This document shows positions 5,816-53,110 of a stretch of DNA of 56,475 nucleotides, piece after piece. A program made the position numbers and the translations under genes. The notes under the pieces are model-generated. The model was not told the origin of the DNA. It ran no database searches and saw only the letters and a program-made list of their open reading frames with translations. Source of the stretch: a virus (lineage: Duplodnaviria > Caudoviricetes); the IMG/VR virus record IMGVR_UViG_3300029319_007564, positions 1 through 56,475 of that record, one strand, 5' to 3'. How positions within the stretch are numbered: position 1 is the stretch's first letter; each line of letters begins with the position of its first letter.

Positions 5816-7093
5816 TTATGTTACAGGTATTTCTTTCCATTGGCCCTTGGCCTTATTGATCCAAACAAAATTTCTTCCTTCAACCCATTCTCCTCCTCCT
5901 ACTGGTCCTGGGCCATCAGTGTCTGTCCTTGTGGTGCCGACTGGGTATTCATCAGGAGTTGCGGCTGCAGCCGTCGCAGATGTAGGTCTGGGGCGTAGAC
6001 CTGCTTTCTTTCTTGCCGTGATAAGTGAGTTAACATTCCTATGTTCCATATGCCAAGCCTCCGGGTTTGAACCGCCGGGTTTTGCCCAATTAGGGTGAAC
6101 CCAGTTATACTTATGCGCGTTAGAACTCATCCAATTATAAAACCTCCCGTTGAAGCCGCCCTTTGTATCATAATCAAATGCAAGTCCCCAACCGTGTTGT
6201 GACTGTCCTGGTGTTGATGCTTTTCTACCTTTTCTGCATTTCAACTCTACTTGGCAATGTTTACCACCGCTATAGCATCTAAAGCCTCCGGTGGGCCTAA
6301 GAGGTTCCCCCATTTCTGCGTGAAATGCCGCGGCCAATCTATTAAAATCGTCAACAACATCGGCCAGAAGTTTAATTGGAGCTGTGCTGTGTTCTGTTGA
6401 GACTTTTCGTAGTATAGAGTCTGGGTAATTTCCATTTTCTACAATCATTCCTGCGCCTTGACCATAGGCGCCCTGATAAATCGCCGTCATCGGTCCAGGG
6501 TCTAAGGCTGGCTGTGGACCAGAGCCCGGGCAAGAGGGCCCGCCGGCATGGCCAATACCCCCATTAGCTGTGATTTGTTGTATATCTGGACAGGCGCCAC
6601 CGGGTGTATAATCTGATGGTGTTATAGAAGCGTTGGGAGTTATTGCTATCACAGTGCCGTGGCCATTAGGAACCTCTTCTCCACCAATCAACCTAACAGG
6701 CACTTGTGCAGTTACATACCCAAACTTTTTTGGCCTCAGACCTTCTTCTGTTACAAACAGTATATGACCGCCAACCAGTTGATTGTTCAGTTTTGTGTTC
6801 GTAGCGTAGGTTGGGTTACAAGGATCTGCAGGCTGTACTGGTGCGCGTCGATCTCTTATTCTACCAAAAAATTGATATTTTCCTATGGCACTCGAACCCT
6901 CAGCCGGGTTTGGTATTCTTCCTTCCATTGCCGCGGCAGCTCTTGCGTCTAGTGGAATAGGATCTGTCAGCACCTGTACAAGCTTGTAGGTTGCAACTCG
7001 ATCTTGAAGATGGTTGCTTTTCATCGAATCACCAAAGGCCTTAGCCATGATGTCCATTCCAGTCAAATCATCAAAATCAATACCGTAAGACAT
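5816..7093 (-). CDS. Protein with C-terminal M15 (VanY-like) Zn peptidoglycan peptidase domain; likely virion-associated lysin
   Basis: Motifs GGFR, PGQSQHGWGLAFD (SxHxxGxAxD) and EAWH. Confidence 0.85.
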   Translation of the reverse strand: MSYGIDFDDLTGMDIMAKAFGDSMKSNHLQDRVATYKLVQVLTDPIPLDARAAAAMEGRIPNPAEGSSAIGKYQFFGRIRDRRAPVQPADPCNPTYATNTKLNNQLVGGHILFVTEEGLRPKKFGYVTAQVPVRLIGGEEVPNGHGTVIAITPNASITPSDYTPGGACPDIQQITANGGIGHAGGPSCPGSGPQPALDPGPMTAIYQGAYGQGAGMIVENGNYPDSILRKVSTEHSTAPIKLLADVVDDFNRLAAAFHAEMGEPLRPTGGFRCYSGGKHCQVELKCRKGRKASTPGQSQHGWGLAFDYDTKGGFNGRFYNWMSSNAHKYNWVHPNWAKPGGSNPEAWHMEHRNVNSLITARKKAGLRPRPTSATAAAATPDEYPVGTTRTDTDGPGPVGGGEWVEGRNFVWINKAKGQWKEIPVT

Positions 7094-33337: not shown

Positions 33338-33414
33338 TGGCTGGGGCGGTTGGACTCGAACCAACAACGGCCGGGGTAACAACCCGGTGCACCTGCCTGT
33401 GGCACTTCACCCCA
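33338..33414 (-). tRNA. tRNA-Asn (GTT), CCA encoded
   Basis: Acceptor TGGGGTG/CGCCCCA + G + CCA; anticodon arm CCGGG-TTGTTAC-CCCGG; T arm GTTGG-TTCGAGT-CCAAC. Confidence 0.9.
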
Positions 33415-36946: not shown

Positions 36947-37296
36947 TGGTGGAGGCGGCGGGAGTCGAACCCGCGTCCGTAACATATCCATAGTTAAGTC
37001 ATTCACAAGCTTATTCAGATTACTATCACAATCTGACAAAGATAGATGGAAAATAAGATATCACCCCCATCAAGCTGGTGATAAATGTTTGGTGGTTTTT
37101 AGATACCGCTTACCACCCTGTTGCAGTAAATACTCAAATTGGATAGAAGGCTTTGAGCGACCTCCCTACTAAGCGGCTAAGCGCTGTTCGAAGTGTAAGT
37201 TGTTATTTGCAACTAAAGTTTTTGAACTGTTAAGGTCGTATCTAACCTGCTTGCACTCGACTCTTTCAATGCCACGTCGAAGCCTAAATCACCCCC
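36947..37296 (-). ncRNA. ssrA: tmRNA; tag (A)ANNNLHFEQRLAA
   Basis: 5' GGGGGTG pairs with 3' CGCCTCC-ACCA including G3.U70; T arm GCGGGTTCGACTCCCGC; tag ORF 37210-37169 ending LAA-TAG-TAG. Confidence 0.95.
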
Positions 37297-39241: not shown

Positions 39242-40039
39242 TTATAATTCTAATTCTGGCGCTGAATCTTGTGCATCTGGCCCAGGATCTGATTTTGCCA
39301 TATCATAAGCTTGATTTGTAGGCTCATCGACCTGATCTGCTAATTCTGTTTCAAACTTATCAAAATAAAGCTTCAAGTTTGCAATCAAATAATCATAAAA
39401 AAGTTCTTGATCTTCTTCGTTCGAAAGTAGCTCATAGGAGTCAATAACACTAGTTTCAATTTTTTTGAAGCTTTGATAAGCCATATTGCGACCAGTTTCA
39501 TCTTCACCGTCGATTCCAAAAGAGTCGACTGGATCCTCTTCTTCTTGTTCATCATCGGCTGCTTTTTCTGCATCTGTGCGAATGTCAATAAATTTTCCGT
39601 CTTCACCACCTTCATCACCAACATCAATTTCAATTTCTTCATCCATATCGATGAATTCATCAAATTCTTGCAGTTGGTCCACTTCATCATCTGCTTCATT
39701 ATTTGTGATTGCTGGTGTCAGAGTTCCAACAACAGCTTGTATTACGTGTGATCTAAATGATTTTCTTTGTTCAGAACTTGTTGTTAAAAGCTTGTAATCT
39801 GTTTCCAAAACTGGTATAATCTTTTTAAGGAGATCTTCTAGAACGTTAATTCCAGTTGATTTATTTGGAGTTGGGCTGTTGTCTGGGGTTTGTGCCTCTT
39901 TTAAGCTTTTAAGTTCAATGTCAATAAATGAACGAATAACCTCACGAAGTTGTTGTTCTTCGTCTGATCTTTTTTGCTTGACATGTCTGATCATATGTCT
40001 TATACTTTCTCTGAGGGTTTCTTCTTCTTTTTGATTCAT
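39242..40039 (-). CDS. Acidic hypothetical protein (possible head-associated/scaffold-like)
   Basis: Repeated LRExIR helices and a long acidic linker. Confidence 0.6.
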   Translation of the reverse strand: MNQKEEETLRESIRHMIRHVKQKRSDEEQQLREVIRSFIDIELKSLKEAQTPDNSPTPNKSTGINVLEDLLKKIIPVLETDYKLLTTSSEQRKSFRSHVIQAVVGTLTPAITNNEADDEVDQLQEFDEFIDMDEEIEIDVGDEGGEDGKFIDIRTDAEKAADDEQEEEDPVDSFGIDGEDETGRNMAYQSFKKIETSVIDSYELLSNEEDQELFYDYLIANLKLYFDKFETELADQVDEPTNQAYDMAKSDPGPDAQDSAPELEL

Positions 40040-42048
40040 CTCATAATTCCTTTTTCCATAATTAGTCTCATAACATCATCTATCGTGCTTATGTCAACAT
40101 TTTCTTTTATAGCAAGATTCTTGCCAGTAAGCTTGCTTATTTCTTTTTGTTTTTTATTAAATTTCTTTGTCGCGTCTGAATTCCAAGAAGTTCCATCAGA
40201 ACCGACCATAGCGCCCTGGACAGCGCCGGATGCCATTGAAGAGATTTCATTCATTCCACTATCAATATCAAATATTGAGAGCAAATCAAATATGTTGGCT
40301 TCGCCAACAAAGTCTTCAAGCAACTCAATCGCTTCCTCATCTTCATCGGCTTTACCGAGAAGATATCTCATATCAGAGGCGTGGAACGCTAAAGGGTTCT
40401 TGCCTGATTTAACACTTGGCATATCATCTTTCAGAGGAGACACATTTAATAATCCCATATATTGGGAAGAATGTGCAACTGGTTGTACAGCAGCGCTAGA
40501 TAAATCACGCAACAGAACTCCATCCTTGACATATTTAGCAGCTTCTTTAAACCTTGCTGCGTCCCCTCCCTTGGTGCTAACTCCAAGTATTACTTCTGTT
40601 CCGGGTTCAACCGGCCCATCTTTTCCTATGAATTCGTATGTGGCTGTAATAGGTGATGCATGCCCAGATACTTGCACGTCTACGTTTGGAAGCTGTCTAG
40701 TTAGTAACTCCCACACTCTTTTGGAATCACCACTCGTTATCTCTCGTCCATTTGGTAATTTGCGAGAAGATTTAAGTGGAGCAGAAATCAATACAATAAC
40801 TTCGTCTGCTTGCGAAGCATATTCTTCGACCATTGCAAGATGCCCCTTGTGAGGTGGTTTGAATGCACCAGGAACAACAGCAATAACTTTTGAAGGACCA
40901 ACAGGATCAGCATCCTCGTCCTCTATTTCTATTTCGTCGTCCTCCTCGTTTAGCGACGTATCCGCTTGAAAAGCGGATCCCATTCCACCGAGAATAAACT
41001 CACCGGTAATTTTTACTGGATTTGGACCAAATAATTTTTCATCACGCAAAACAACACCTTCGTGGTCCATTACATTACCCATTGGACTGGTTAATCCTCT
41101 GAGAACATCATTTCCTAACATACGAGTTGCATGCATCATGATAGCGCCATATATTGCAGCTTCTGCATCGGAATCTTCAATTAGTTCCACAATTGGTACA
41201 GAACCGTCTAGAATGGCTTTGTAAAGCTCTTTGTGTAGTGGGTGGGTCTTCTTACCATTCTTGAGCTTAACGCTCTTGTAGCGCGGATTAGAGGCCTCTG
41301 ATAGCCATTCTCTTAATGACTTGGTAATCTCACGGTCATCTGACACTCTTATTGTTAATGGTTCGCTAAGCGTACTCTCAAAATCTATTTCTGAGTCTTG
41401 TAATCTTTCTGTTGGTACAGAACCATATACTTCAAATCCGTACTCATTTGCCACTACATTTAATTTCGAAATTAGTTTTTCCATCACTAGCGGATCAAAA
41501 GGAACTTCAACGCTTGGAGCTTTTACTCCTTCGGGTCGTTCTGCTCCAGGTCTCTCTTGACCTGTTCGACTGTGAACCTTATGATAAAATTGATTTAGCC
41601 CATGGATAGCTAAGAAATTTTCATCATATTGAGTTACATTCGTTGTGCCGGCAACATACTCGGTATTTAGAAACATTGAAGGATTGTCAAGCATCCCCAA
41701 TTCTTGCAATTCATTTTTTATTGATGGGAGAGCTGTATTTAAAATTGTTAGTAGCGTTCTAATTGCAGGCCGCATTCCGTGTCCTTCCGGAAATCTGTCA
41801 TCAACTCGGGCCATTGTTATGCCCTCAATGTCAATTGGCTTTAAGGACCCTCTATCTACTGCAAATTGTTTTGCTTCTTCGTCTCCAACAACTTTGAAAG
41901 ACACATTAACACCGTCGATTTTTACGGCGCCAGCACCTTTTTTTTCAACAAATGTTTTTGCTCTTCCAAAAAAATCTATTAAATCATTACCGCTGTTAAC
42001 CCACCCTAAATCAAAAGGGTGGTTCATGTGTCCCGCTGCACCGCCCAT
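40036..42048 (-). CDS. Fusion of a ligase-like nucleotidyltransferase domain and a HIGH-motif nucleotidyltransferase domain
   Basis: VKIDGVN (KxDG), HEGVVLR, PVKITG; acidic linker; then PGAFKPPHKGH and HASDMR. Confidence 0.75.
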   Translation of the reverse strand: MGGAAGHMNHPFDLGWVNSGNDLIDFFGRAKTFVEKKGAGAVKIDGVNVSFKVVGDEEAKQFAVDRGSLKPIDIEGITMARVDDRFPEGHGMRPAIRTLLTILNTALPSIKNELQELGMLDNPSMFLNTEYVAGTTNVTQYDENFLAIHGLNQFYHKVHSRTGQERPGAERPEGVKAPSVEVPFDPLVMEKLISKLNVVANEYGFEVYGSVPTERLQDSEIDFESTLSEPLTIRVSDDREITKSLREWLSEASNPRYKSVKLKNGKKTHPLHKELYKAILDGSVPIVELIEDSDAEAAIYGAIMMHATRMLGNDVLRGLTSPMGNVMDHEGVVLRDEKLFGPNPVKITGEFILGGMGSAFQADTSLNEEDDEIEIEDEDADPVGPSKVIAVVPGAFKPPHKGHLAMVEEYASQADEVIVLISAPLKSSRKLPNGREITSGDSKRVWELLTRQLPNVDVQVSGHASPITATYEFIGKDGPVEPGTEVILGVSTKGGDAARFKEAAKYVKDGVLLRDLSSAAVQPVAHSSQYMGLLNVSPLKDDMPSVKSGKNPLAFHASDMRYLLGKADEDEEAIELLEDFVGEANIFDLLSIFDIDSGMNEISSMASGAVQGAMVGSDGTSWNSDATKKFNKKQKEISKLTGKNLAIKENVDISTIDDVMRLIMEKGIMR

Positions 42049-42299
42049 TACTCGTCTCCCTTAGACTCTTCTAAAATACTAAGTTTTTCTTGTAAGACTC
42101 GCATATCGCCCTGCATACGTCGAGCATATCTCTTAACTTCTCTTAAATGTTGTTTAGCTAAAGACATTCTTCTTTTCTCAGTCACGGTTCGTGGTTTGAG
42201 ATTGGAAATAATTTCTTCGAGACCTTGAATGTAAGTAAAAATAGTCTTTTCATCTAAACTCTCATAGAGAAAATCTTGCCAGTTTTTTTCTAAAGACAC
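42048..42299 (-). CDS. Coiled-coil protein with NWQDFLYE leader
   Basis: Start revised to GTG 42299 (GGAGG RBS). Confidence 0.65.
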   Translation of the reverse strand: MSLEKNWQDFLYESLDEKTIFTYIQGLEEIISNLKPRTVTEKRRMSLAKQHLREVKRYARRMQGDMRVLQEKLSILEESKGDE

Positions 42300-42385
42300 T
42301 TGTGCGCCCTCCATTTGTTGAAGCCATAATAAGTCCAAAATAAATTTTTGTTTAAGTTTTTTGAGTTCGATTCGAGTCTCAACTT

Positions 42386-44884: not shown

Positions 44885-45571
44885 CTAGCATTTAATCTTC
44901 TGGATGTCATACTGGCCATCATTATTGATAACTTTGTTTATGACCAATTCAAAATCTAATGGTTTAACGTCATTTATTTCGGGATTATCGCAAACTTTTG
45001 CTAGCACGTCGTCAATATTTTTTTGAGAATCTTCATAATATTCAATACGATTAATGTTTGATTTTCCATCAGGCATAATTTTATTACTTAACATTTTTAC
45101 CATAACATCACCCTTCGATTCTCCGGCAGTTGCAATCGGTCTAATTTTAGATGAATCAATTCCTATTTCATCAAGGTAGTCTAAAATTGGCCCAAGAGAC
45201 TTACCCCTTCGAGCTGTTAAAATATAGGTTCTAGAGTTTTCTGAAAAGTTTCTTAGTACGTCAGTGACTAATTTAATCTCAAGAGGATTTTTTACAATAG
45301 AAAAGTCACTAAGGTCTATCTTGTATCCAGCATTAATTAATCCATCAACTGCGTCGAAAGCATCTATGCCTTCTTTTTCTGCAGCTGCGTTCATGTATTC
45401 TTCAAATTCTTTTTGATCTCGCAATGTGGCTGTCGAACCATCCGGCGCCGTGACACGTGTTTCTGATTCGGTATGTGCTATTGTTTCATCAAAATCAAAA
45501 ATACGCAGAGTAGTCACGGGCTCATAATTTTCCGCGATAAACTTTCGCCAATTTTCAAGTAGGAGTTTCAC
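44885..45571 (-). CDS. HAD-family phosphatase with MKLLLENWRKFIAE leader
   Basis: IFDFDETIAHT, ILTARR, K, YYEDS. Confidence 0.8.
   Translation of the reverse strand: MKLLLENWRKFIAENYEPVTTLRIFDFDETIAHTESETRVTAPDGSTATLRDQKEFEEYMNAAAEKEGIDAFDAVDGLINAGYKIDLSDFSIVKNPLEIKLVTDVLRNFSENSRTYILTARRGKSLGPILDYLDEIGIDSSKIRPIATAGESKGDVMVKMLSNKIMPDGKSNINRIEYYEDSQKNIDDVLAKVCDNPEINDVKPLDFELVINKVINNDGQYDIQKIKC
45545..45571 (-). repeat. 27-bp exact repeat copy 1 (encodes start-KLLLENWR)
   Basis: GTGAAACTCCTACTTGAAAATTGGCGA, identical to 46234-46260. Confidence 0.95.
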
Positions 45572-46260
45572 GCGCTAGCAATACCTTTTTCAAAACCCTT
45601 GAAAGGGTTTTTTAAATCACTTCTTAAATCAATCAAAGTTTGTAACCAGCCTTGAGATTCTGCTACATCCTTCAGCATTGATAAAATACCACTTGGATCT
45701 AATGCAGTAACAACTGTTTGAATTAATAGCTTTATTTTTTCTAGATTTTGTTGTACAAAGGCAGCAATTTTTGCTGCACTAGCAACTCCCCCAGACATGG
45801 TATCTAATATAGCTTTAGCTCCAAGTTCAACTAGTTTTTGCAAAACTATCGCTAATATCGCCGCACCAGCTTTTAAATATTTTGGACTTCTCAACACTCC
45901 AAAAGCTTGAACTATTTGCCTGGATCTATATTTTGGAAATAGCTTTAAAAGAATATTGTTTTTTGTTTTTACTGCAATTGTTCGCATGCTGGAAAAAAAG
46001 CTTTGTAATTTTTTTAGTGACGCGTCAACAAAGGACATCAACTGGTTATCCTTCCAATTGTTGAAACTTTGTATTTGTTTTTTTACTGAGTTGAAAGAAT
46101 TACTAAAAAACGATCCAATACTCTCATCAAGCAATCTCTGCTGCTCTTCTATTATGAGCATTTCAGTAACATAATTACCTGCCCAAATTTCTTCTACAAG
46201 ATTTTCGGCAGATCTCTGCTCGTTTAAATAATCTCGCCAATTTTCAAGTAGGAGTTTCAC
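45568..46260 (-). CDS. Helical/amphipathic protein with MKLLLENWRDYLNE leader
   Basis: Start revised to GTG 46260 (GTGA-coupled, repeat copy). Confidence 0.7.
   Translation of the reverse strand: MKLLLENWRDYLNEQRSAENLVEEIWAGNYVTEMLIIEEQQRLLDESIGSFFSNSFNSVKKQIQSFNNWKDNQLMSFVDASLKKLQSFFSSMRTIAVKTKNNILLKLFPKYRSRQIVQAFGVLRSPKYLKAGAAILAIVLQKLVELGAKAILDTMSGGVASAAKIAAFVQQNLEKIKLLIQTVVTALDPSGILSMLKDVAESQGWLQTLIDLRSDLKNPFKGFEKGIASA
46234..46260 (-). repeat. 27-bp exact repeat copy 2
   Basis: Identical to 45545-45571. Confidence 0.95.
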
Positions 46261-46610
46261 ATCTCTTTCCAATATTTTATCCAGGCATATGCCTTTCTTT
46301 CATTTAAGTAGTTTTCTTTTTCGTCGTTATCATATGCCTCAAGCTCAAAAGGATTAACATAATATGCCTCTTTACCTCCGAGTCCCGACAATAAACCGTT
46401 TAAATGAAAATAAGCATACATAATCCATTGAAAAATAAACAACATTTCAACTTGCTGTTTGTAGTGAATTGTTTCATGTCTTCTTACTCTTTCATCTAAT
46501 TCTCCTCGCGAGAAAACAAAAATAAAAAAACTTAGCGCATTTATTTCAATTGGAGCCAGCTTGGATAACCAAACTGGTATTTTGCTATTTTCAAAAAATA
46601 AAGGAAACAT
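46257..46610 (-). CDS. Small HExxH metallopeptidase-like protein
   Basis: RRHETIHYKQQ...NPFELEAY. Confidence 0.7.
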   Translation of the reverse strand: MFPLFFENSKIPVWLSKLAPIEINALSFFIFVFSRGELDERVRRHETIHYKQQVEMLFIFQWIMYAYFHLNGLLSGLGGKEAYYVNPFELEAYDNDEKENYLNERKAYAWIKYWKEM

Positions 46611-46852
46611 TATTTAACTTCCTCTACTGATTTATCCATTTCATTATCAAAATCAGATCTAATCCAAACCATTGAATTGAATTGTGCTCTTTTTCTTTCC
46701 AACACTAAAGATCCTTGTGGTTTAACCAATTCTCCTTGTACCTCCACACTTTCAAAATCAATTTCAGTTTTTTGTTTATAAACAACGCGAGGCTCCTCCT
46801 CGTCGTTTGCATATGCAACACTCGATAGTAAAAATATTAAAATGTATCTCAC
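46610..46852 (-). CDS. cglF: CglF/GltF-like (adventurous gliding motility) secreted protein
   Basis: Signal peptide ending AYA, then VVYKQKTEIDFESVEVQGELVKPQGSLVLERKRAQFNSMVWIRSDFDNEMDKS, matching my recollection of the myxobacterial CglF pattern; AAGGAGG RBS. Confidence 0.75.
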   Translation of the reverse strand: MRYILIFLLSSVAYANDEEEPRVVYKQKTEIDFESVEVQGELVKPQGSLVLERKRAQFNSMVWIRSDFDNEMDKSVEEVK

Positions 46853-46971: not shown

Positions 46972-47214
46972 TTAGTTATCATAGTTCCTGTCAATATCGT
47001 CTCTTACCATTGTAGTAGCTTTTAACATATCTTCCGAATTAACCTCTTTAAGTATTAAACTACCTGTTTTTGGTTCGTAATACATACCGATTAAATCACC
47101 TTTTGATATACTTTTCATCTCTTCTTCGGTTAATGTAATTTTTCCGCCATTCTTTTTTACTAACATTGTAATGATGCTAAAAAGATATTCTGGGTCTTTT
47201 AGGTATTTGCTCAT
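46972..47214 (-). CDS. Hypothetical protein
   Basis: ATGA-coupled start 47214. Confidence 0.65.
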   Translation of the reverse strand: MSKYLKDPEYLFSIITMLVKKNGGKITLTEEEMKSISKGDLIGMYYEPKTGSLILKEVNSEDMLKATTMVRDDIDRNYDN

Positions 47215-49763
47215 GAGTTTAAAAATCCTTTCCACGTTTTTACGAGGTTTTCGTTTGTTTGCATAAATGATGGCTGGCGAGAATTAACAAACTGAGCTAA
47301 TACTCTATTAAATACCACCTTAAGGTTGTCTTCATCGTCCATTTCACCTTCTACAAGCTCTTGAAACAACTGAGCCATAATGTCAGGCTCGTCAGCATTA
47401 ATGGAAAATACAGCGGTATATCCAATCTCACCGCCTTTTTCAACTGTTACAGCATCCATAGATAAGTAGTATCGTGTATTTATTGCTTTTCTTGGCTCTT
47501 CTAAAAGTTGTTTTCTCAATTCAATTTTAAAGTCGCGAGAATCAACGATCTGCTTTAGTACCTCGATACCTAATCCTAAATCTTCCGGATCGTAGTAATG
47601 TGTATAACGTGCTGTAGACTCATACGACTCAGAGTATTGTCCATCAGTGTCGAGATCCCATTCATATGAGGTAAGTGCCCTGTCTTCGATGGACATGGCG
47701 AGTTCCATATATCTACCGCCTTCCATTTGCCCTTCGCGTTTGAAATAATCAGTGAGCACAGCTTCAAACTGATCTCTTCTGTCATCGATTATCACATCGA
47801 TGTTTTCAAGTGCTTCTCTGTATTCGTCTGGCATAGCCATATAACCGTTACCATAAATGTCAGGATGCTCAAAGTTAATTTTCATAGTTAAGTGTATTTC
47901 TTCACGAACACGACGTATAACAGGTGTATAGTTGTTGGAGTCTTCAAATATATCACCATATACCGCAATCACCTCATCGACTGAGTTCCAAACAACTTCT
48001 TCGTGGTTACCGGGCAGTCTTTTCCACTCATCAACCGGCCACTTAGCAATAAACGCTGCGAAAGGTCTAATATAAGCGCTATCGGCACCATCATCTTGAA
48101 CTTCATAATCAGAATATGTTTGAGCCATTCTGTTATTGAACTCATTCATTATTTCTTCGCACTGTGCATTATATTGTGCAATGATATCGCCAACCAAATT
48201 AGCGTCTAATGCGTCTTCTGTGTCGGTGTTTTGCTTCATTGAACCTTCGACATCTACACCGGGACCAACTAGTTGACGCACCAATTTGCGACGGCCCTCT
48301 TTACCAGAAGTATCTTCATATGATCCGCCAAACAACATAAATTTACTGAGATCAATCATTCCATCTTGTTTTGGCATATTTGCGATGACTTCTTCTTGGC
48401 TATTTCTTGCCCAATCAGTAACTCTATTAACTAAACCGGGAATATCCATACCATAAACACGCTTTTCAGGCATTCCAACGTCTTGTCCATCATCCCAGCG
48501 CTTCGGAGGCTCGTCACCTTCGTAATATCTAACATGACGGATGCGTGTGCGAGAAATTGGCTCAATATCGCCAGTAAATGGGCGTTTATCGTCAGCAAAT
48601 ATCTCACCTTCTTGTATTTCTTGCTCTGCGCTGTCTATATTACCCGTGTTAGTGGCGCTCAGAAGGTCTTCTGTCTCAACCACGTATGCTACCGCTCCGT
48701 GGCCCTGTGCCTCGGCTACAGCGCATTTATAGTACGATTGATAGGCATTTTGGCGACTAGCTGGAGAGTGACAAGAGGTAATCGTATCAAAATCACTCAT
48801 TCTGAGCACATCTATCGGATGTCGAGTAATGATAATGGAATATTTGTCATTATCGAGGTTATTTATCTCTTTTTTGATGAATCCGGCGTTCTTTTTCCAA
48901 TATTCACCGTATTCAGTGGCTAAATCGGTTAAATTGTAACCTGCTGGGCCTGCAACGCCCGGATTTACGACATATAAGTAAATTTGAGTGTTAATTCTCT
49001 GAAAATTCTCATATTCTTTCTCGTCAAGCGCTGCTTTGAGCATTTTTCCGGTAACTCGGTTTGGTGTCCTAACTGGTTCGCCATCTGCTAATTTATAGTT
49101 GATATTCGCCATATGTTTGTAGACTTTTTGGTATATTTCGTCTTTTCTTCGGCTTAAATCAGCTAATTTAGAGAAAAGTTTGCCGATTTTCATCTGAATC
49201 TTCTTTGTTTTCTTCTTTTCGGGCTGCCCACCCTGCATACCAATTAAAGTATCAAGTAAATCCTCGGCTGTACGTAGATCTCGCTCGGCATACACCATAC
49301 CTTTCTCCCAATCTACGTCATATTCTTGAGATCTGAAGAATTCTGAGAACTTTCCAAGATCTGAACTTGGATCAGTGGTCGGAAACGGTATAACAACGCG
49401 CATTTTGTTGCTAAAAAGGTCATTTAAGGGCAAATTTGCTGGATTTAGGTCATCCAACACGTCTTCAAGCACTCGCATCTCGTCTTCGGTGACTTCTCGG
49501 AGCACTTTTTCGTTAACAGGGACACAATTTGGCACCATCCGGCCACCTTTGTCCTTCATACCAACCTGTTTATAGCCATCCCAGCATTTTTCTACCAAAG
49601 GTTCGACTTCTTCGTTCTTTTTCTTGCTTTTTTTGACACAATTTGGGTATCTTTTCCCAAACATGGTCTTCATACCCTTTTTTTCATATCCAGGCCAACA
49701 CTTTTCTTGTAAAGTATCTAAAAGTGCCTCTGTTTTAGCTAAAATTTGCTCATCAGTGGCCAT
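47211..49763 (-). CDS. 850-aa protein with two N-terminal CW-x-GY...PNCV modules and a large acidic domain
   Basis: KCWPGYEKKGMKTMFGKRYPNCVK and KCWDGYKQVGMKDKGGRMVPNCVP; C-terminus TWKGFLNS. Confidence 0.75.
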   Translation of the reverse strand: MATDEQILAKTEALLDTLQEKCWPGYEKKGMKTMFGKRYPNCVKKSKKKNEEVEPLVEKCWDGYKQVGMKDKGGRMVPNCVPVNEKVLREVTEDEMRVLEDVLDDLNPANLPLNDLFSNKMRVVIPFPTTDPSSDLGKFSEFFRSQEYDVDWEKGMVYAERDLRTAEDLLDTLIGMQGGQPEKKKTKKIQMKIGKLFSKLADLSRRKDEIYQKVYKHMANINYKLADGEPVRTPNRVTGKMLKAALDEKEYENFQRINTQIYLYVVNPGVAGPAGYNLTDLATEYGEYWKKNAGFIKKEINNLDNDKYSIIITRHPIDVLRMSDFDTITSCHSPASRQNAYQSYYKCAVAEAQGHGAVAYVVETEDLLSATNTGNIDSAEQEIQEGEIFADDKRPFTGDIEPISRTRIRHVRYYEGDEPPKRWDDGQDVGMPEKRVYGMDIPGLVNRVTDWARNSQEEVIANMPKQDGMIDLSKFMLFGGSYEDTSGKEGRRKLVRQLVGPGVDVEGSMKQNTDTEDALDANLVGDIIAQYNAQCEEIMNEFNNRMAQTYSDYEVQDDGADSAYIRPFAAFIAKWPVDEWKRLPGNHEEVVWNSVDEVIAVYGDIFEDSNNYTPVIRRVREEIHLTMKINFEHPDIYGNGYMAMPDEYREALENIDVIIDDRRDQFEAVLTDYFKREGQMEGGRYMELAMSIEDRALTSYEWDLDTDGQYSESYESTARYTHYYDPEDLGLGIEVLKQIVDSRDFKIELRKQLLEEPRKAINTRYYLSMDAVTVEKGGEIGYTAVFSINADEPDIMAQLFQELVEGEMDDEDNLKVVFNRVLAQFVNSRQPSFMQTNENLVKTWKGFLNS

Positions 49764-49764
49764 T

Positions 49765-50892
49765 TCACTTTCCTTTGCGAGAATATTTACCTGAACATTT
49801 CCATTTTTGACGAGAAAGACATAATGGACTACTTCTGTCCTTACCAGAACAGTCTTTTCCGTGAGATTTCATATCTCCATACGATCTTGCGCAGTAAGAA
49901 TCACCTTTTGAGGTACCAGGAGAGATAGAATAACCTTTTGCGCCGTAAGAAACACATTTTCCTTTAACTCTGCGTGCATATTTCTTGCCTTTTGACGGTG
50001 TACATCCTTTTTTCTTCTTCTCATTAAGAGCATCTTCATCTTCAGTCAATCCATAGTATAAAGATTCTTCAAGATAAGCCTCAGTTTCTTCATAAGAGTA
50101 TAATTCAGCTAAATCTGCTACTATTTTGTTCTCTTCCTCGATTTGAACTGCTTCTTTTTTAGAGTTGCCCCAGTTTTTAGCTCCAACTTTACGGCATTTT
50201 ACAAGGGCACCGGAGGCGTATGCACTGGGCCAGACTTTATAACGTGATTTTACCTTGTGATAGCAGGCATCTTTTGAGCCTTTCTTTTCTGTCAGATATT
50301 CTTGAAGCTCTTTTTTAATGATAACTTTTAATTTTTCATTATTTTTGCCATAAGTTCGACATGGTTTTTGTCCGCAACCACAATTCATACCTTCGTTGAC
50401 TTCATTTTCTTCTTTTAAATCGTCATCTTCGGTGCTATCAAGAATTTTATCAATTCTTTCTGCCTGTCCTTTGTGCATTTTTGAAGCTCCGTGCAGTTCT
50501 TTAGATATTTTTTCAAGTTCTTTTTCGTCTTCTTTTGAGTGAGACTCTAAAAAAACTGCTTCAAGTTCTTCACGAACAATTTTTTCTAAATCCATTTGTA
50601 ATTCCTCATTTTTTTTAGATTTTCCTTTCTTTCCCCACGATTTTCCCTTGCCTCTTTCTTTGCAAGCGCCAGGTGTTGGCCTACAAGCGGGGTATTTTTT
50701 GCGACTTTCACCGGATCCGCGGCCGCAAGACTTGTAACCACCCTTTCCATCTGGCGCATTACAGTCAACCCAGCCTTTTTTTGAGCCTTTAGCTCCTTTT
50801 CTTCCGAACCAATCCCTTAGAGAAGACTCTTTGCTGGACTCAGTGCCGGCTTTTTTTCTTTTTTCATCAAGATTATCATATAAATCATTCAT
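49765..50892 (-). CDS. Modular protein of basic Cys-containing mini-domains separated by acidic linkers
   Basis: LRDWF..WVDC..KYPACRP; CGCGQKPC; DACYHKVKSRYKVWPSAYASGALVKCR; KGDSYCARS. Confidence 0.75.
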   Translation of the reverse strand: MNDLYDNLDEKRKKAGTESSKESSLRDWFGRKGAKGSKKGWVDCNAPDGKGGYKSCGRGSGESRKKYPACRPTPGACKERGKGKSWGKKGKSKKNEELQMDLEKIVREELEAVFLESHSKEDEKELEKISKELHGASKMHKGQAERIDKILDSTEDDDLKEENEVNEGMNCGCGQKPCRTYGKNNEKLKVIIKKELQEYLTEKKGSKDACYHKVKSRYKVWPSAYASGALVKCRKVGAKNWGNSKKEAVQIEEENKIVADLAELYSYEETEAYLEESLYYGLTEDEDALNEKKKKGCTPSKGKKYARRVKGKCVSYGAKGYSISPGTSKGDSYCARSYGDMKSHGKDCSGKDRSSPLCLSRQKWKCSGKYSRKGK

Positions 50893-51334
50893 TTTTAGAC
50901 ATTTCCAAAGCTTTCTCCAATAAATAGATCGGAATTTCAGTATCTTCTATGTCTTTTATATCATTAATTGTTAACCACTTGTATGCGTCATGCTCTATTT
51001 CACCTGTTTCTGGATTTGGGATGTCCACATTTACCTCTCCAGTCCAATTTTGAGTTAAAAAATAGTGCTTACCTTTCTTTGGCTCTCCAAGATATTTTAA
51101 ATCACCCAACTTACAAGATAGGCCGGCTTCCTCTTCAAGTTCTCTAACTGCGCCGGCTTCTATTGAATTATCTTTATCATCAATATGCCCACCTGGCATT
51201 GTCCAAGAACCAGCTCTATCATCAATATTAGAGCGTCTTAAAATTAAAAATTGCTGATTATCATTAAGACAAACAACAATTCCTACTGTTTTCTTCTCAC
51301 CTTCTGTGAGAAATTTATTCCATTTATATTTCAT
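50885..51334 (-). CDS. Nudix hydrolase with MKYKWNKFLTE leader
   Basis: WTMPGGHIDDKDNSIEAGAVRELEEEAGL Nudix box; ATGA-coupled start. Confidence 0.88.
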   Translation of the reverse strand: MKYKWNKFLTEGEKKTVGIVVCLNDNQQFLILRRSNIDDRAGSWTMPGGHIDDKDNSIEAGAVRELEEEAGLSCKLGDLKYLGEPKKGKHYFLTQNWTGEVNVDIPNPETGEIEHDAYKWLTINDIKDIEDTEIPIYLLEKALEMSKNE

Positions 51335-52065
51335 TTGCAAGCTTTGGGATCTTTTCCTTGATACCCCCTACAGAAACTTCTAAGCGCCCTATCTATATTG
51401 ACTTTTGTTATTGGCGCTACCCAAATCATGTTTTCTTGAACTTGTATCTCTGGATAGTACTCAACGTCTACGCCATATAATATACCTACTTGGCGTCCTT
51501 TTGTATCATAAATTACAGAACCTGAGCACCCAAACCACCCATATGTTTGAAGTATTATATGGTTTCCAATACCTGGACCATCAGCATAGCCGGCAACTCT
51601 GCCGCTAAATGACATAAGCTTGTGAGATGAAGGATATCCTGAATATATTATATTTGTCCCAACGCTGGCAATTTTACCTAGGGGTTCATATTTCATTGGC
51701 TCAATTGTTCTAAAGGGAGTTCTTAAATATAATATAGCTATATCGTTTGCTTTATCTGCATATATGAGAGTACCTATGTGAGACTCCTGCTTGTGTATAA
51801 CTAAATATTTCATTCCCAGTATGCCATCTGCAACATGTTGTGCTGTAAATACCAAATTGACATCTTTATATTTTATATAAGATCCTGATCCGTGCCCCCC
51901 AGAAAAAGCTTCCGTGACTCTTACGGCAGCAGAACGTACCTTCTTTTCAACTGAGCTGTTTATTGTTTCAAAACGATCTACAGGTAAAGAAGGAGTGTAA
52001 TCAGATACATTCGCTTGCGCCGTTCCTGTTAATAAAAATAAAATGATTGTAAATAACTTAAGCAC
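51331..52065 (-). CDS. Secreted trypsin-like serine protease
   Basis: TAQHV, DIAIL, FGCSGS triad; signal peptide from GTG 52065. Confidence 0.82.
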   Translation of the reverse strand: MLKLFTIILFLLTGTAQANVSDYTPSLPVDRFETINSSVEKKVRSAAVRVTEAFSGGHGSGSYIKYKDVNLVFTAQHVADGILGMKYLVIHKQESHIGTLIYADKANDIAILYLRTPFRTIEPMKYEPLGKIASVGTNIIYSGYPSSHKLMSFSGRVAGYADGPGIGNHIILQTYGWFGCSGSVIYDTKGRQVGILYGVDVEYYPEIQVQENMIWVAPITKVNIDRALRSFCRGYQGKDPKACK

Positions 52066-53110
52066 CGGTGTCGTCCTCTTCTTCGTAATACCTGTATCCA
52101 ATTTCTACTAATGTGCTGCCAGGTGGTATTGTACTGAAATAAACGGTATTATCAAATTCAGAATACGACCAAGTTGTAATTCCAGGCTCAATAAGCGCCC
52201 CATTCATAAAGACGCGAACAGATTCTGGAATTGCTTCGTGACTTAATTTCCAAGATTCATGAGGCTCAATAGATGCAGCTGCATCAGCAACTCCAGCAGT
52301 CCAATCGTCAGCGCATATGTCAATTACATTTCCGCTAAATGCATTAGTAGCATCCATATATCGTGTTCCCACATCTATTGGGCTAACCCAAGTATCACAT
52401 AATGACTCAGTTGGCTCTTGGTTTACAATGCTAGCAAGAAATACAGAGCCACCTCGTAAGGCGCCATACCAACTAATAAAGTCATATTCATCAGTAAAAT
52501 GATCATTACTCTGTTCTTGCTCATCAGAAACAAACACTACTAGTAGACCAGCATCGGGTCTCATCCAGGTGCCAGAGTAAGAATTGTTGACAATATATTC
52601 ATAAACCGCATCAAAACCTTCTTCAAAGCCACCTCGACCCATAGCACTATACATTGCTTCAGCATCTAAAACATCATCTCCTGGCACTAATGGAAATTGG
52701 TTTTCCATAACTGCGCGAGATGGATCGTTTGAAATCATAGCCAATCGCCAGCTAGTAGGCGGCAAAGCTCCGAGCATTGCGCTTATGCCGGCCATCAACT
52801 GTGGATCATACCGATGCATTGAGCCGGAGGTATCAATAACCCACAGGATATCAATTCCGTCGACAGTATTTGGTTGAGTAAAAGAATCTACCCAAACCAA
52901 TCCAGGATCGTCAAATCCAGTGTCTATATAAACCGGTACTTCTACCTCTATATAAACAGGTACCTCGACCTCCTCAACAACAGTTTCGGTTTCAACTACA
53001 GTTTTTGTTTCTACAATTGTTTTTGTTTCGCCCGTTATAATACTATAATCAGGGCTGCATCCAAATACAGTTAAAATGCCAAGTAAAATATATAGAAATT
53101 TGTGTACCAT
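52058..53110 (-). CDS. vWA-domain lipoprotein (CglB-like architecture)
   Basis: Lipobox VFGC, V/E/T-rich stalk, MIDAS DILWVIDTSGSM, VVFVSDE. Confidence 0.8.
   Translation of the reverse strand: MVHKFLYILLGILTVFGCSPDYSIITGETKTIVETKTVVETETVVEEVEVPVYIEVEVPVYIDTGFDDPGLVWVDSFTQPNTVDGIDILWVIDTSGSMHRYDPQLMAGISAMLGALPPTSWRLAMISNDPSRAVMENQFPLVPGDDVLDAEAMYSAMGRGGFEEGFDAVYEYIVNNSYSGTWMRPDAGLLVVFVSDEQEQSNDHFTDEYDFISWYGALRGGSVFLASIVNQEPTESLCDTWVSPIDVGTRYMDATNAFSGNVIDICADDWTAGVADAAASIEPHESWKLSHEAIPESVRVFMNGALIEPGITTWSYSEFDNTVYFSTIPPGSTLVEIGYRYYEEEDDTGA

Follow-up and report, generated by a model that had tools for sequence, protein, structure and literature searches.

Two neighbouring genes in the IMG/VR virus record IMGVR_UViG_3300029319_007564, encoding proteins of 375 and 850 amino acids (aa), carry strings of small, basic, cysteine-containing modules that begin directly after a hydrophobic-x-Glu motif. 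From the sequence, both genes may be read as encoding head-cargo precursors of a marine T4-like phage, cut at these joints into small DNA-associated proteins, a reading to which we give about an even chance of being right. The stretch analysed, hereafter the window, is the whole record of 56,475 bases; it is about 31% complete by estimate and nearly all of its genes lie on the minus strand.

Basic Modules and Their Joints

A preliminary description, made from the letters of the window, had pointed to basic Cys modules lying directly after (L/V)-x-E sites in the two open reading frames (ORFs). This observation is confirmed: both ORFs are present on the minus strand, together with all of the junctions quoted (LDE/KRKK, VNE/GMNCGCGQKPC, LTE/KKGSKDACYHKVK, LNE/KKKKGC, LQE/KCWPGY..PNCV and LVE/KCWDGY..PNCV, the slash marking the joint) and with the two spacers LEKIVREEL and LKVIIKKEL. 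The 375-aa protein is 17.6% Lys and holds 15 Cys and 11 [LIV]xE sites; the 850-aa protein has 17 such sites and seven Cys, four of them within the first 80 residues. Cutting the 375-aa protein in silico at each [LIVMF]xE yields four basic pieces with Cys (98, 31, 51 and 84 aa; net charges of +17, +4, +9 and +21; pI 9.3–10.1) and nine acidic pieces without Cys (net −1 to −5). Searches of Pfam and NCBIfam gave no family for either protein, and PDB profile searches gave no usable match.

Because the module starts of the preliminary description had been set after the fact, the junctions were redefined by a rule blind to P3, the hydrophobic position of the motif: a fixed anchor was set inside every module, and the nearest Glu upstream of it was taken. 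At five of the six sites that this rule finds in the window, P3 is L or V, the miss being module A, whose nearest Glu lies in ..SKE/SSLRDWF; the probability of at least 5/6 is about 0.011 against a background of about 0.3 (hand calculation on the window junctions). The same rule was applied to 302 anchor-bearing proteins pooled from homolog searches and from the ORFs of fetched loci. A hydrophobic P3 (L, I, V, M or F) is present in 289 of 358 unique junction contexts, compared with 1249 of the 4529 other Glu residues in the same proteins. Matched controls gave 833/2764 for Glu in acidic linkers and 193/567 for Glu followed by K or G, so that the rate at non-junction Glu is 28–34% and the module starts are enriched 2.4–2.9-fold over matched Glu. 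Fisher's test returned p = 3e-89, a value overstated because the junction contexts are related by descent. Module starts in homologs are therefore enriched in hydrophobic-x-Glu; a lack of such enrichment (of L-x-E) was named in the preliminary description as grounds for refutation.

Every module type contributes to this enrichment, more weakly in A and C. Among the relatives, P3 is hydrophobic in 66/67 contexts for CW, 71/72 for D2, 9/10 for F, 11/14 for D1, 43/57 for B (before NCGC), 69/103 for C, 17/32 for A and 3/3 for E. A logo of 290 unique 10-mers gives L 49%, V 16%, I 10% and F 2% at P3, Glu at P1, and K 50%, G 26%, A 9% and S 6% at P1´, with P2 nearly free (D 26%, E 20%, K 12%, N 9%). 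It could be proposed that these joints are recombination scars, with the DNA of the joint (GAA followed by A-rich Lys codons) serving as microhomology for cassette exchange and the protein motif arising as a by-product. Cassette exchange is frequent and poly-Lys, encoded by poly-A-rich DNA, follows many joints, both as such scars would predict. However, P3 varies among L, V, I and F, P2 is nearly free and 41% of the contexts have Gly, Ala or Ser at P1´, so what is conserved in these protein-level contexts is a class of residue and not a DNA word, and we regard the scar explanation as improbable.

A more serious alternative is that the chains stay uncut, as multi-domain basic DNA-binding or virion proteins in which hydrophobic-x-Glu followed by Lys is simply the ordinary end of an acidic amphipathic helix. 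Glu and Leu abound in the linkers, where about 30% of the Glu conform to the motif in any case. Against this stands the placement of the motif at the exact module start, at the excess over matched Glu given above. Furthermore, the motif persists after Gly/Asn-rich, low-complexity and non-helical linkers (GGTVSE/EGLRDWF, PDLFGE/ACWAGY and GGGVSE/GNLRKWF), which argues against a mere helix cap. Taken with the evidence on this alternative discussed in the following sections, we consider uncut chains rather unlikely.

Modules as Exchangeable Cassettes

Comparison of the relatives indicates that the modules are autonomous cassettes, shuffled and swapped between phages. The check on module shuffling suggested in the preliminary description came out positive in three ways: the order is permuted, the contents of a slot are swapped, and free-standing genes occur in other phages. 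Homologs of the 375-aa protein show the modules in other orders, with additional ones placed between joints. In the 120 closest homologs of the 850-aa protein, the cassette slot holds a CW module in 45, CW with a poly-Lys tail in 22, CW.GH in two, an unrelated two-Cys module (F) in 17, something else in two and no Cys cassette in 29. Hydrophobic-x-Glu followed by Lys precedes 86 of 86 cassettes in these homologs, and the pair of CW modules seen in the window protein recurs in none of the 120. The body start ..VLREVTEDE.. is present in 117 of the 120, the other three being truncated.

Module D is a separate gene of 125 or 105 aa in two relatives (L004 and L050), where it has an N-terminal leader of the spacer-helix type (..IQEELEAYLEE.. 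and ..IREELEAVLDE/KKKK) that is internal in linker 1 of the window protein. The spacer helices thus behave as leaders, a point against uncut chains. Modules C and A occur in the Roseobacter phages CRP-7 and CRP-901 as free small frames with a basic start and neither an acidic leader nor hydrophobic-x-Glu; module C is a free-standing 47-aa gene in CRP-7, and the window module A is 48% identical over 65 aa to a free-standing frame of CRP-901 (E = 3e-10). No Peptidase_S77 match was found in the complete genomes of these two phages (0/2), and S-SCSM1 has such a match. The occurrence of the same modules, free and leaderless, in phages without a Peptidase_S77 match also speaks against uncut chains, as a natural control that comprises two genomes only, with the CRP-901 frames unannotated. 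The CRP-901 protein gp67 ("HVA1 family") was considered as a relative of module D and rejected as a look-alike whose relation is not demonstrable (E = 2.3).

The CW and C modules keep two Cys residues, as do the cyanophage versions of module A. Since most modules have only two Cys, a disulfide is favoured over a four-ligand zinc site. The preliminary description had spoken of Zn/disulfide peptides; the zinc part is not supported, and the disulfide part appears to be the better fit.

Leaders and Tagged Genes

In T4, propeptides of 10–19 residues direct the internal proteins (IPs) to the core, with positions 4 and 7 of the capsid-targeting sequence (CTS) serving targeting and positions 8 and 10 processing (PMC9026906). 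Replacing the junction Glu by Asp stops processing in T4 and leaves targeting intact (PMC9026906). The T4 leaders are MKTYQEFIAE/A in IPII and IPIII and 19 residues ending ITE/A in IPI. Compared with the T4 rule of 10–19 residues ending L/I-x-E, the leader of the 375-aa protein (MNDLYDNLDE/K) has 10 residues and ends LDE, and that of the 850-aa protein has 20 and ends LQE/K. The leaders in the window are reminiscent of the T4 CTS, of which MNDLYDNLDE matches positions 8 and 10 only. Leaders of this type are found in 112 of 120 closest homologs, the remaining eight being variants that still end in L-x-E. Inside the same protein, the end of spacer helix 2 (QEYLTE) parallels the T4 IPII/IPIII leader end QEFIAE. 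As a separate observation, a 74-aa ORF in the head-gene region of the complete relative G001 (L084, 4994–5218) consists of a basic two-Cys segment and a C-terminal helix, ..MRLIIREELQEYLKE.., nearly identical to spacer helix 2.

Leaders of neighbouring genes (..NWRKFIAE) come closer to T4, matching its aromatic, aromatic, aliphatic and Glu residues with the same spacing. The DNA pattern for N-W-x-x-[FY]-h-x-E, where h is hydrophobic, occurs three times in the window against 0.01 expected, always at a gene start, and five times per record in three related records; in G001 its occurrences cluster beside the 850-aa homolog. Two of the tagged window genes, of 228 and 234 aa, have only their first 15 residues in common. 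The NUDIX gene directly upstream has eight extra N-terminal residues with respect to T4 NudE, and its likely start resembles the T4 IPII/IPIII leader. The tag MKLLxENWRxFLxE is seen on three otherwise unrelated genes in the window and on at least six in G001 (L046, 11487–16968), beside the 850-aa homolog; one of the tagged G001 genes is DnaJ-like in appearance.

The 20-residue DEQIL leader of the 850-aa protein is kept in close homologs. Among 101 long distant homologs, the same body carries a W-x-x-[FY]-h-x-E leader in 32 and the DEQIL type in eight. This swapping indicates that the leaders are exchangeable tags, the Glu-ended form not being universal.

A T4-Type Lineage and a Prohead Protease in a Complete Relative

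The premise of the preliminary description, that T4 gp21 cleaves after (L/I)-x-E, agrees with the published account (PMC9026906). The complete relative G001 (203,368 bases), which carries an 850-aa homolog, encodes Peptidase_S77 (gp21; 5.2e-34) and Gp23 (2.9e-62). Peptidase_S77 is thereby found in one of three records of relatives; the other two, which are fragmentary, show neither S77 nor Gp23. The propeptide of the G001 major capsid protein aligns with that of T4, and its last residues, ..KELLRE, directly adjoin the conserved mature part, an end that is consistent with an L-x-E maturation site.

Relatives in Cyanophages and Their Virions

A search with the 375-aa protein gave at least 7989 matches at E ≤ 0.001 among 8000 scored candidates. 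It matches phrog_727 over residues 5–372 (9.5e-25) and 384 phage records, 363 of them cyanophages; module C alone has matches in 366 phage records, T4-like cyanophages nearly throughout. The 375-aa protein aligns with SSM1_115 of S-SM1 over modules C and D (E = 2e-22) and with PSSM2_123 of P-SSM2 (4e-15), and SSM1_115 holds modules A, C and CW together with a D-like module. In S-RIM2, P-SSM2 and S-SM1 the homologous gene lies between the gp15/gp16 and gp17 genes and forms cluster T4-GC119. The window gene, unlike these, follows a NUDIX gene, with no head or packaging gene nearby.

T4-GC119 is present in 15 of 16 cyanophages compared, with sizes of 276–2985 nucleotides (nt), and is not in the S-PM2 genome (Sullivan et al. 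2010, PMC3037559). In purified S-SM1 virions it was detected as a "structural protein", with 13 peptide counts (PMC3037559, Table S8). It figures only as hypothetical or structural in the available part of that paper, which mentions no modules, joints or processing. GenBank gives the label "virion protein" to ORF29 (517 aa), the homolog in S-SCSM1, a phage whose virions the authors of the record had analysed by mass spectrometry; detection of ORF29 was not confirmed in the supplementary ORF table, which has no mass-spectrometry column, and the GenBank label alone stands. Cyanophage relatives of the 375-aa protein are thus virion-associated, on the evidence of S-SM1. The peptides of S-SM1 virions fit an intact protein equally well, which can be counted on the side of uncut chains, and the N4 virion RNA polymerase offers an example of large cargo packaged unprocessed (PMC5512222).

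Proposed Route and Its Weighing

If both proteins are indeed precursors of head cargo, the acidic N-terminal leader, helped in the 375-aa protein by the similar internal helices, would bring the precursor into the prohead scaffolding core, as the T4 CTS does for IPI–III and Alt. A gp21-type prohead protease would then cut after the Glu of hydrophobic-x-Glu at each joint. The acidic Cys-free leaders and spacers may mask the charge of the basic modules in the cytoplasm and be lost after cutting; fragments of the T4 scaffold mostly exit the head (PMC9026906). The Lys-rich modules of about 2–10 kDa, probably disulfide-stapled, and the 760-aa body would remain in the head with the DNA, and might be ejected with it. 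That the modules serve as a DNA counter-ion or as an effector is speculation.

The release of peptides in the head by a prohead protease, as the preliminary description had it, gains from the T4-like lineage, the enrichment at the joints, the shuffling and the virion association, whereas its zinc binding does not.

Several observations weigh against this reading. The motif is low in information, and it is missed by module A in 15 of 32 contexts and by module C in 34 of 103. Lys and Gly dominate P1´ at the joints, compared with Ala at three T4 IP sites. Of the 101 distant homologs of the 850-aa protein, 32 have a Trp-aromatic start without hydrophobic-x-Glu directly after it and 29 show neither leader type. 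Many cyanophage members of the family lack a targeting-like N-terminus, that of S-SM1 starting MPLVNQEAERIARG and others starting with a Cys module; for Syn9, an annotated T4-GC119 member went undetected in virions (PMC3037559), and virion proteomics does not place T4-GC119 inside the capsid. The window, a fragment, gave no match to the protease (Peptidase_S77) or to a capsid gene, and the 850-aa gene of G001, at about 10–13 kb, is distant from the head genes at 112–131 kb. Finally, no T4-type late promoter was found in the intergenic DNA ahead of the operon, and the window shows no enrichment of the motif, with nine occurrences of TATAAATA (5.6 expected) and 32 of ATAAATA (23.7 expected).

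Cutting could also be done outside the capsid by another protease, such as the Trypsin_2 peptidase encoded two genes upstream (51331–52101), the small HExxH protein downstream (46257–46610) or a host enzyme. Some S1-family enzymes are Glu-specific. The genes are flanked by Trypsin_2 (8.4e-11) and by phrog_15610 "protease" (2.2e-20), with synteny in three related loci (L003, L056 and L013). Yet the Trypsin_2 protein has a signal-peptide-like N-terminus and the two precursors have none, so that peptidase and precursors would be in separate compartments. Genes for head and packaging proteins surround the cyanophage members, with no such peptidase as a neighbour in the stretches shown, and the joint motif matches the known specificity of gp21. 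Cutting by such a protease is, in our judgement, very improbable.

Features of the Window

The features that make up the two genes, and the tagged genes beside them, are collected in Table 1.

Table 1. Positions of the two proposed precursor genes, their parts and the leader-bearing neighbours in the window.
Feature	Positions	Strand	Basis
375-aa mosaic precursor gene, putative (T4-GC119 / phrog_727 family)	49765–50892	minus	ORF; phrog_727 E = 9.5e-25; BLASTP to SSM1_115 E = 2e-22
N-terminal leader MNDLYDNLDE, 10 residues, ends L-D-E before KRKK	50863–50892	minus	ORF and in-silico cut
Basic module A (SLRDWF..GWVDC..C..C..C, 4 Cys) with poly-Lys head and tail	50608–50862	minus	motif reading and in-silico cut
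Acidic Cys-free linker 1, contains spacer helix DLEKIVREELEAVFLE, ends VNE	50392–50607	minus	motif reading and in-silico cut
Basic module B (GMNCGCGQKPCRTYGKN, 3 Cys)	50338–50391	minus	motif reading and in-silico cut
Spacer helix 2 (EKLKVIIKKELQEYLTE), ends L-T-E	50287–50337	minus	ORF and motif reading
Basic module C (KDACYHKVKSRYKVWPSAYASGALVKCRKVGAKNWG, 2 Cys)	50152–50286	minus	matches in phage records
Acidic Cys-free linker 2, ends L-N-E	50020–50151	minus	motif reading and in-silico cut
Basic module D (KKKKGCTPSKGKKYARRVKGKC..YCARS.., 6 Cys, net +21)	49768–50019	minus	in-silico cut
850-aa gene: leader, two CW cassettes and conserved 760-aa body	47211–49763	minus	ORF and homologs
Leader MATDEQILAKTEALLDTLQE, 20 residues, ends L-Q-E	49704–49763	minus	kept in close homologs
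CW cassette 1 (KCWPGYEKKGMKTMFGKRYPNCVKK and Lys tail), ends L-V-E	49590–49703	minus	motif reading and in-silico cut
CW cassette 2 (KCWDGYKQVGMKDKGGRMVPNCVP), ends V-N-E	49509–49589	minus	motif reading; slot variable in 120 closest homologs
Conserved body, starts KVLRE/VTEDE	47214–49508	minus	880 clusters, alignment A1
Invariant body core RHPxDxxRMSDFDxIxSCHS...C.AEA.GHG	48678–48839	minus	alignment A1, 75 sequences
NUDIX hydrolase directly upstream; from internal ATG MKYKWNKFLTE/GEKK	50885–51340	minus	Pfam NUDIX 2.7e-20
228-aa gene, leader MKLLLENWRKFIAE/	44885–45571	minus	N-terminus and DNA pattern
234-aa gene, leader ..KLLLENWRDYLNE/	45568–46272	minus	N-terminus and DNA pattern
96-aa gene, ..EKNWQDFLYESLDE/K near N-terminus	42048–42338	minus	N-terminus and DNA pattern

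The body of the 850-aa protein belongs to a family of 880 clusters (50% identity) at E ≤ 0.001. It has no match among 50,697 cultured-phage records, where only residues 3–114 of the 850-aa protein match, and the PHROG matches of the protein are confined to the region of CW cassette 1. Residue E90 is conserved at 90% or more, and ten columns are invariant in the 75 sequences aligned (R314, P316, D318, R321, D324, S330, C331, H332, C347 and G356); this core looks enzyme-like. Several identities for the body were considered, and none proved reliable. ACP was the only Pfam match at E ≤ 1 and is sub-threshold; EcoRI_methylase-like (0.90), PcfJ (0.81–0.86) and PBECR4 (0.85) are Atlas leads only, with no significant profile match; and GNAT-like folds gave a structural TM below 0.5 on a model with a pLDDT of 0.46. 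One of 20 distant homologs scanned (P0328) carries a C-terminal PG_binding_1 domain (6.5e-17), which hints at action at the cell envelope.

An 87-aa ORF (46972–47235, minus) overlaps the stop of the 850-aa gene and holds the same position in four related loci (L003, L013, L046 and L056); a role as chaperone or partner of the 850-aa protein is possible. Nearby lie, next to each other and also on the minus strand, a gene for an 80-aa protein with a signal-peptide-like start (46610–46852) and one for a small hydrophobic protein with an HETIH motif, the phrog_15610 match mentioned above (46257–46610); the two are kept beside the 850-aa gene in relatives. Just upstream, in a packed gene run on the minus strand, are the Trypsin_2 peptidase and a lipoprotein-like 350-aa protein (52058–53110), whose synteny is kept in L003, L056 and L013.

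Farther away, a cluster of about 20 kb for sugar-nucleotide and glycan synthesis (about 8888–29747, minus) includes heptose-pathway enzymes, four epimerase/dehydratase-like genes, glycosyltransferases, an aminotransferase, a B12-binding radical SAM enzyme and a sulfotransferase-like gene, and resembles the lipopolysaccharide (LPS) clusters of large cyanophages. ARAGORN predicts a tmRNA (36947–37296, tag peptide ANNNLHFEQRLAA) and a tRNA-Asn (33338–33414), both on the minus strand. A 670-aa protein (40036–42048, minus) has a cytidylyltransferase/NMNAT-like stretch and a 425-aa protein (5816–7093, minus) a VanY (D-Ala-D-Ala carboxypeptidase) domain, enzyme classes that have both been reported in cyanophage virion proteomes (S-SCSM1 paper, PMC9602691). 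A close relation of the 670-aa protein to the cyanophage virion cytidylyltransferase was rejected, its phage matches being four Flavobacterium phage NMNAT genes only.

Relation to Known Systems and Significance

Phage proteins carried along with the DNA have their classic example in the T4 internal proteins, one of which, IPI, is a weapon against restriction. By mechanism, the closest known system to the window genes is that of these T4 proteins: in IPI, IPII, IPIII and Alt, as in the window proteins, a short N-terminal leader ends in aliphatic-x-Glu, the lineage is of T4 type (with Peptidase_S77 found, on the window side, in the complete relative G001), leaders stand on unrelated cargo, and the cargo is basic. 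The T4 gene order is nudE, e, ipIII, ipII, and in the window a NUDIX gene likewise adjoins the two genes. The window system differs in stringing several modules along a single chain that has joints and leader-like helices in its interior, in its leader types (at least three) and in its modules, which are Cys mini-domains of 20–85 residues. Furthermore, packaging and cleavage are proven for the T4 IPs, whereas the window system is known here from its sequence. No named PHROG, Pfam or NCBIfam family links the cargo to IPI, IPII, IPIII or Alt; the likeness, judged by eye with no direct BLAST made, is confined to the leader.

By homology, the closest relative is T4-GC119 / phrog_727, a true homolog of the 375-aa protein that shares the module set A, C, CW and D-like but differs in gene position and in module content and order. 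By concept, the closest are the polyvalent proteins, single chains of unrelated domains for which packaging in the capsid and delivery together with the DNA are predicted (Iyer et al. 2017, PMC5512222); that paper itself likens them to viral polyproteins. They carry enzymatic effector domains, with an embedded peptidase where they are processed (PMC5512222), whereas the window modules, though several and distinct, are tiny, basic, Cys-bearing mini-domains outside the effector types catalogued there. Pfam and NCBIfam searches found no peptidase domain in the 375-aa or the 850-aa protein, and the window joints would fit a prohead protease acting in trans, unlike the embedded peptidase of polyvalent proteins. 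In the available part of PMC5512222 the word "cyanophage" is absent and "T4-like" is used only for Alt.

Two further likenesses are more distant. In the giant phages phiKZ, 201phi2-1 and SPN3US, cleavage on the C-terminal side of Glu within short motifs (S/A-x-E in phiKZ) processes many proteins of the head interior, some of them DNA-associated, and propeptides have multiple sites (PMC9026906). The P3 preference is different there, and the cargo consists of large inner-body or ejection proteins and not of mini-module strings. Adenovirus pVII and pX (mu) are small, very basic DNA-condensing peptides freed in the particle by a maturation protease. The analogy is functional only, since virus, protease and sequences are unrelated and the precursors lack a multi-module build. 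Searches of the literature on capsid targeting, prohead proteases and T4-like internal proteins found no account of basic mini-modules strung together by protease joints.

A broader proposal, possible though doubtful, is that a "cargo code" readable from sequence is in use among marine T4-like phages, the abundant cyanomyoviruses among them. Interchangeable acidic leaders (..NWRxFLxE, ..DEQIL..LxE, ..DLYxxLDE and internal ..EELEAxLxE) together with hydrophobic-x-Glu joints would load polyproteins into the prohead. The head protease would trim the acidic spacers and leave swappable, protamine-like, disulfide-stapled Lys-rich peptides that neutralise or organise the genome, plus co-ejected enzymes.

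If the precursors are cut as proposed, a role would be given to a large class of "hypothetical" proteins, with at least 7989 matches for the 375-aa protein and 880 clusters for the 850-aa body. The packaged and possibly injected proteins of uncultured phages would become predictable from sequence alone, and cyanophage cultures and mass-spectrometry data that are already available would allow a test of the idea that small basic peptides act as counter-ions of the DNA in phage heads. Even if the chains stay uncut, they would still be an unusually clear case of domain-cassette shuffling in virion proteins.

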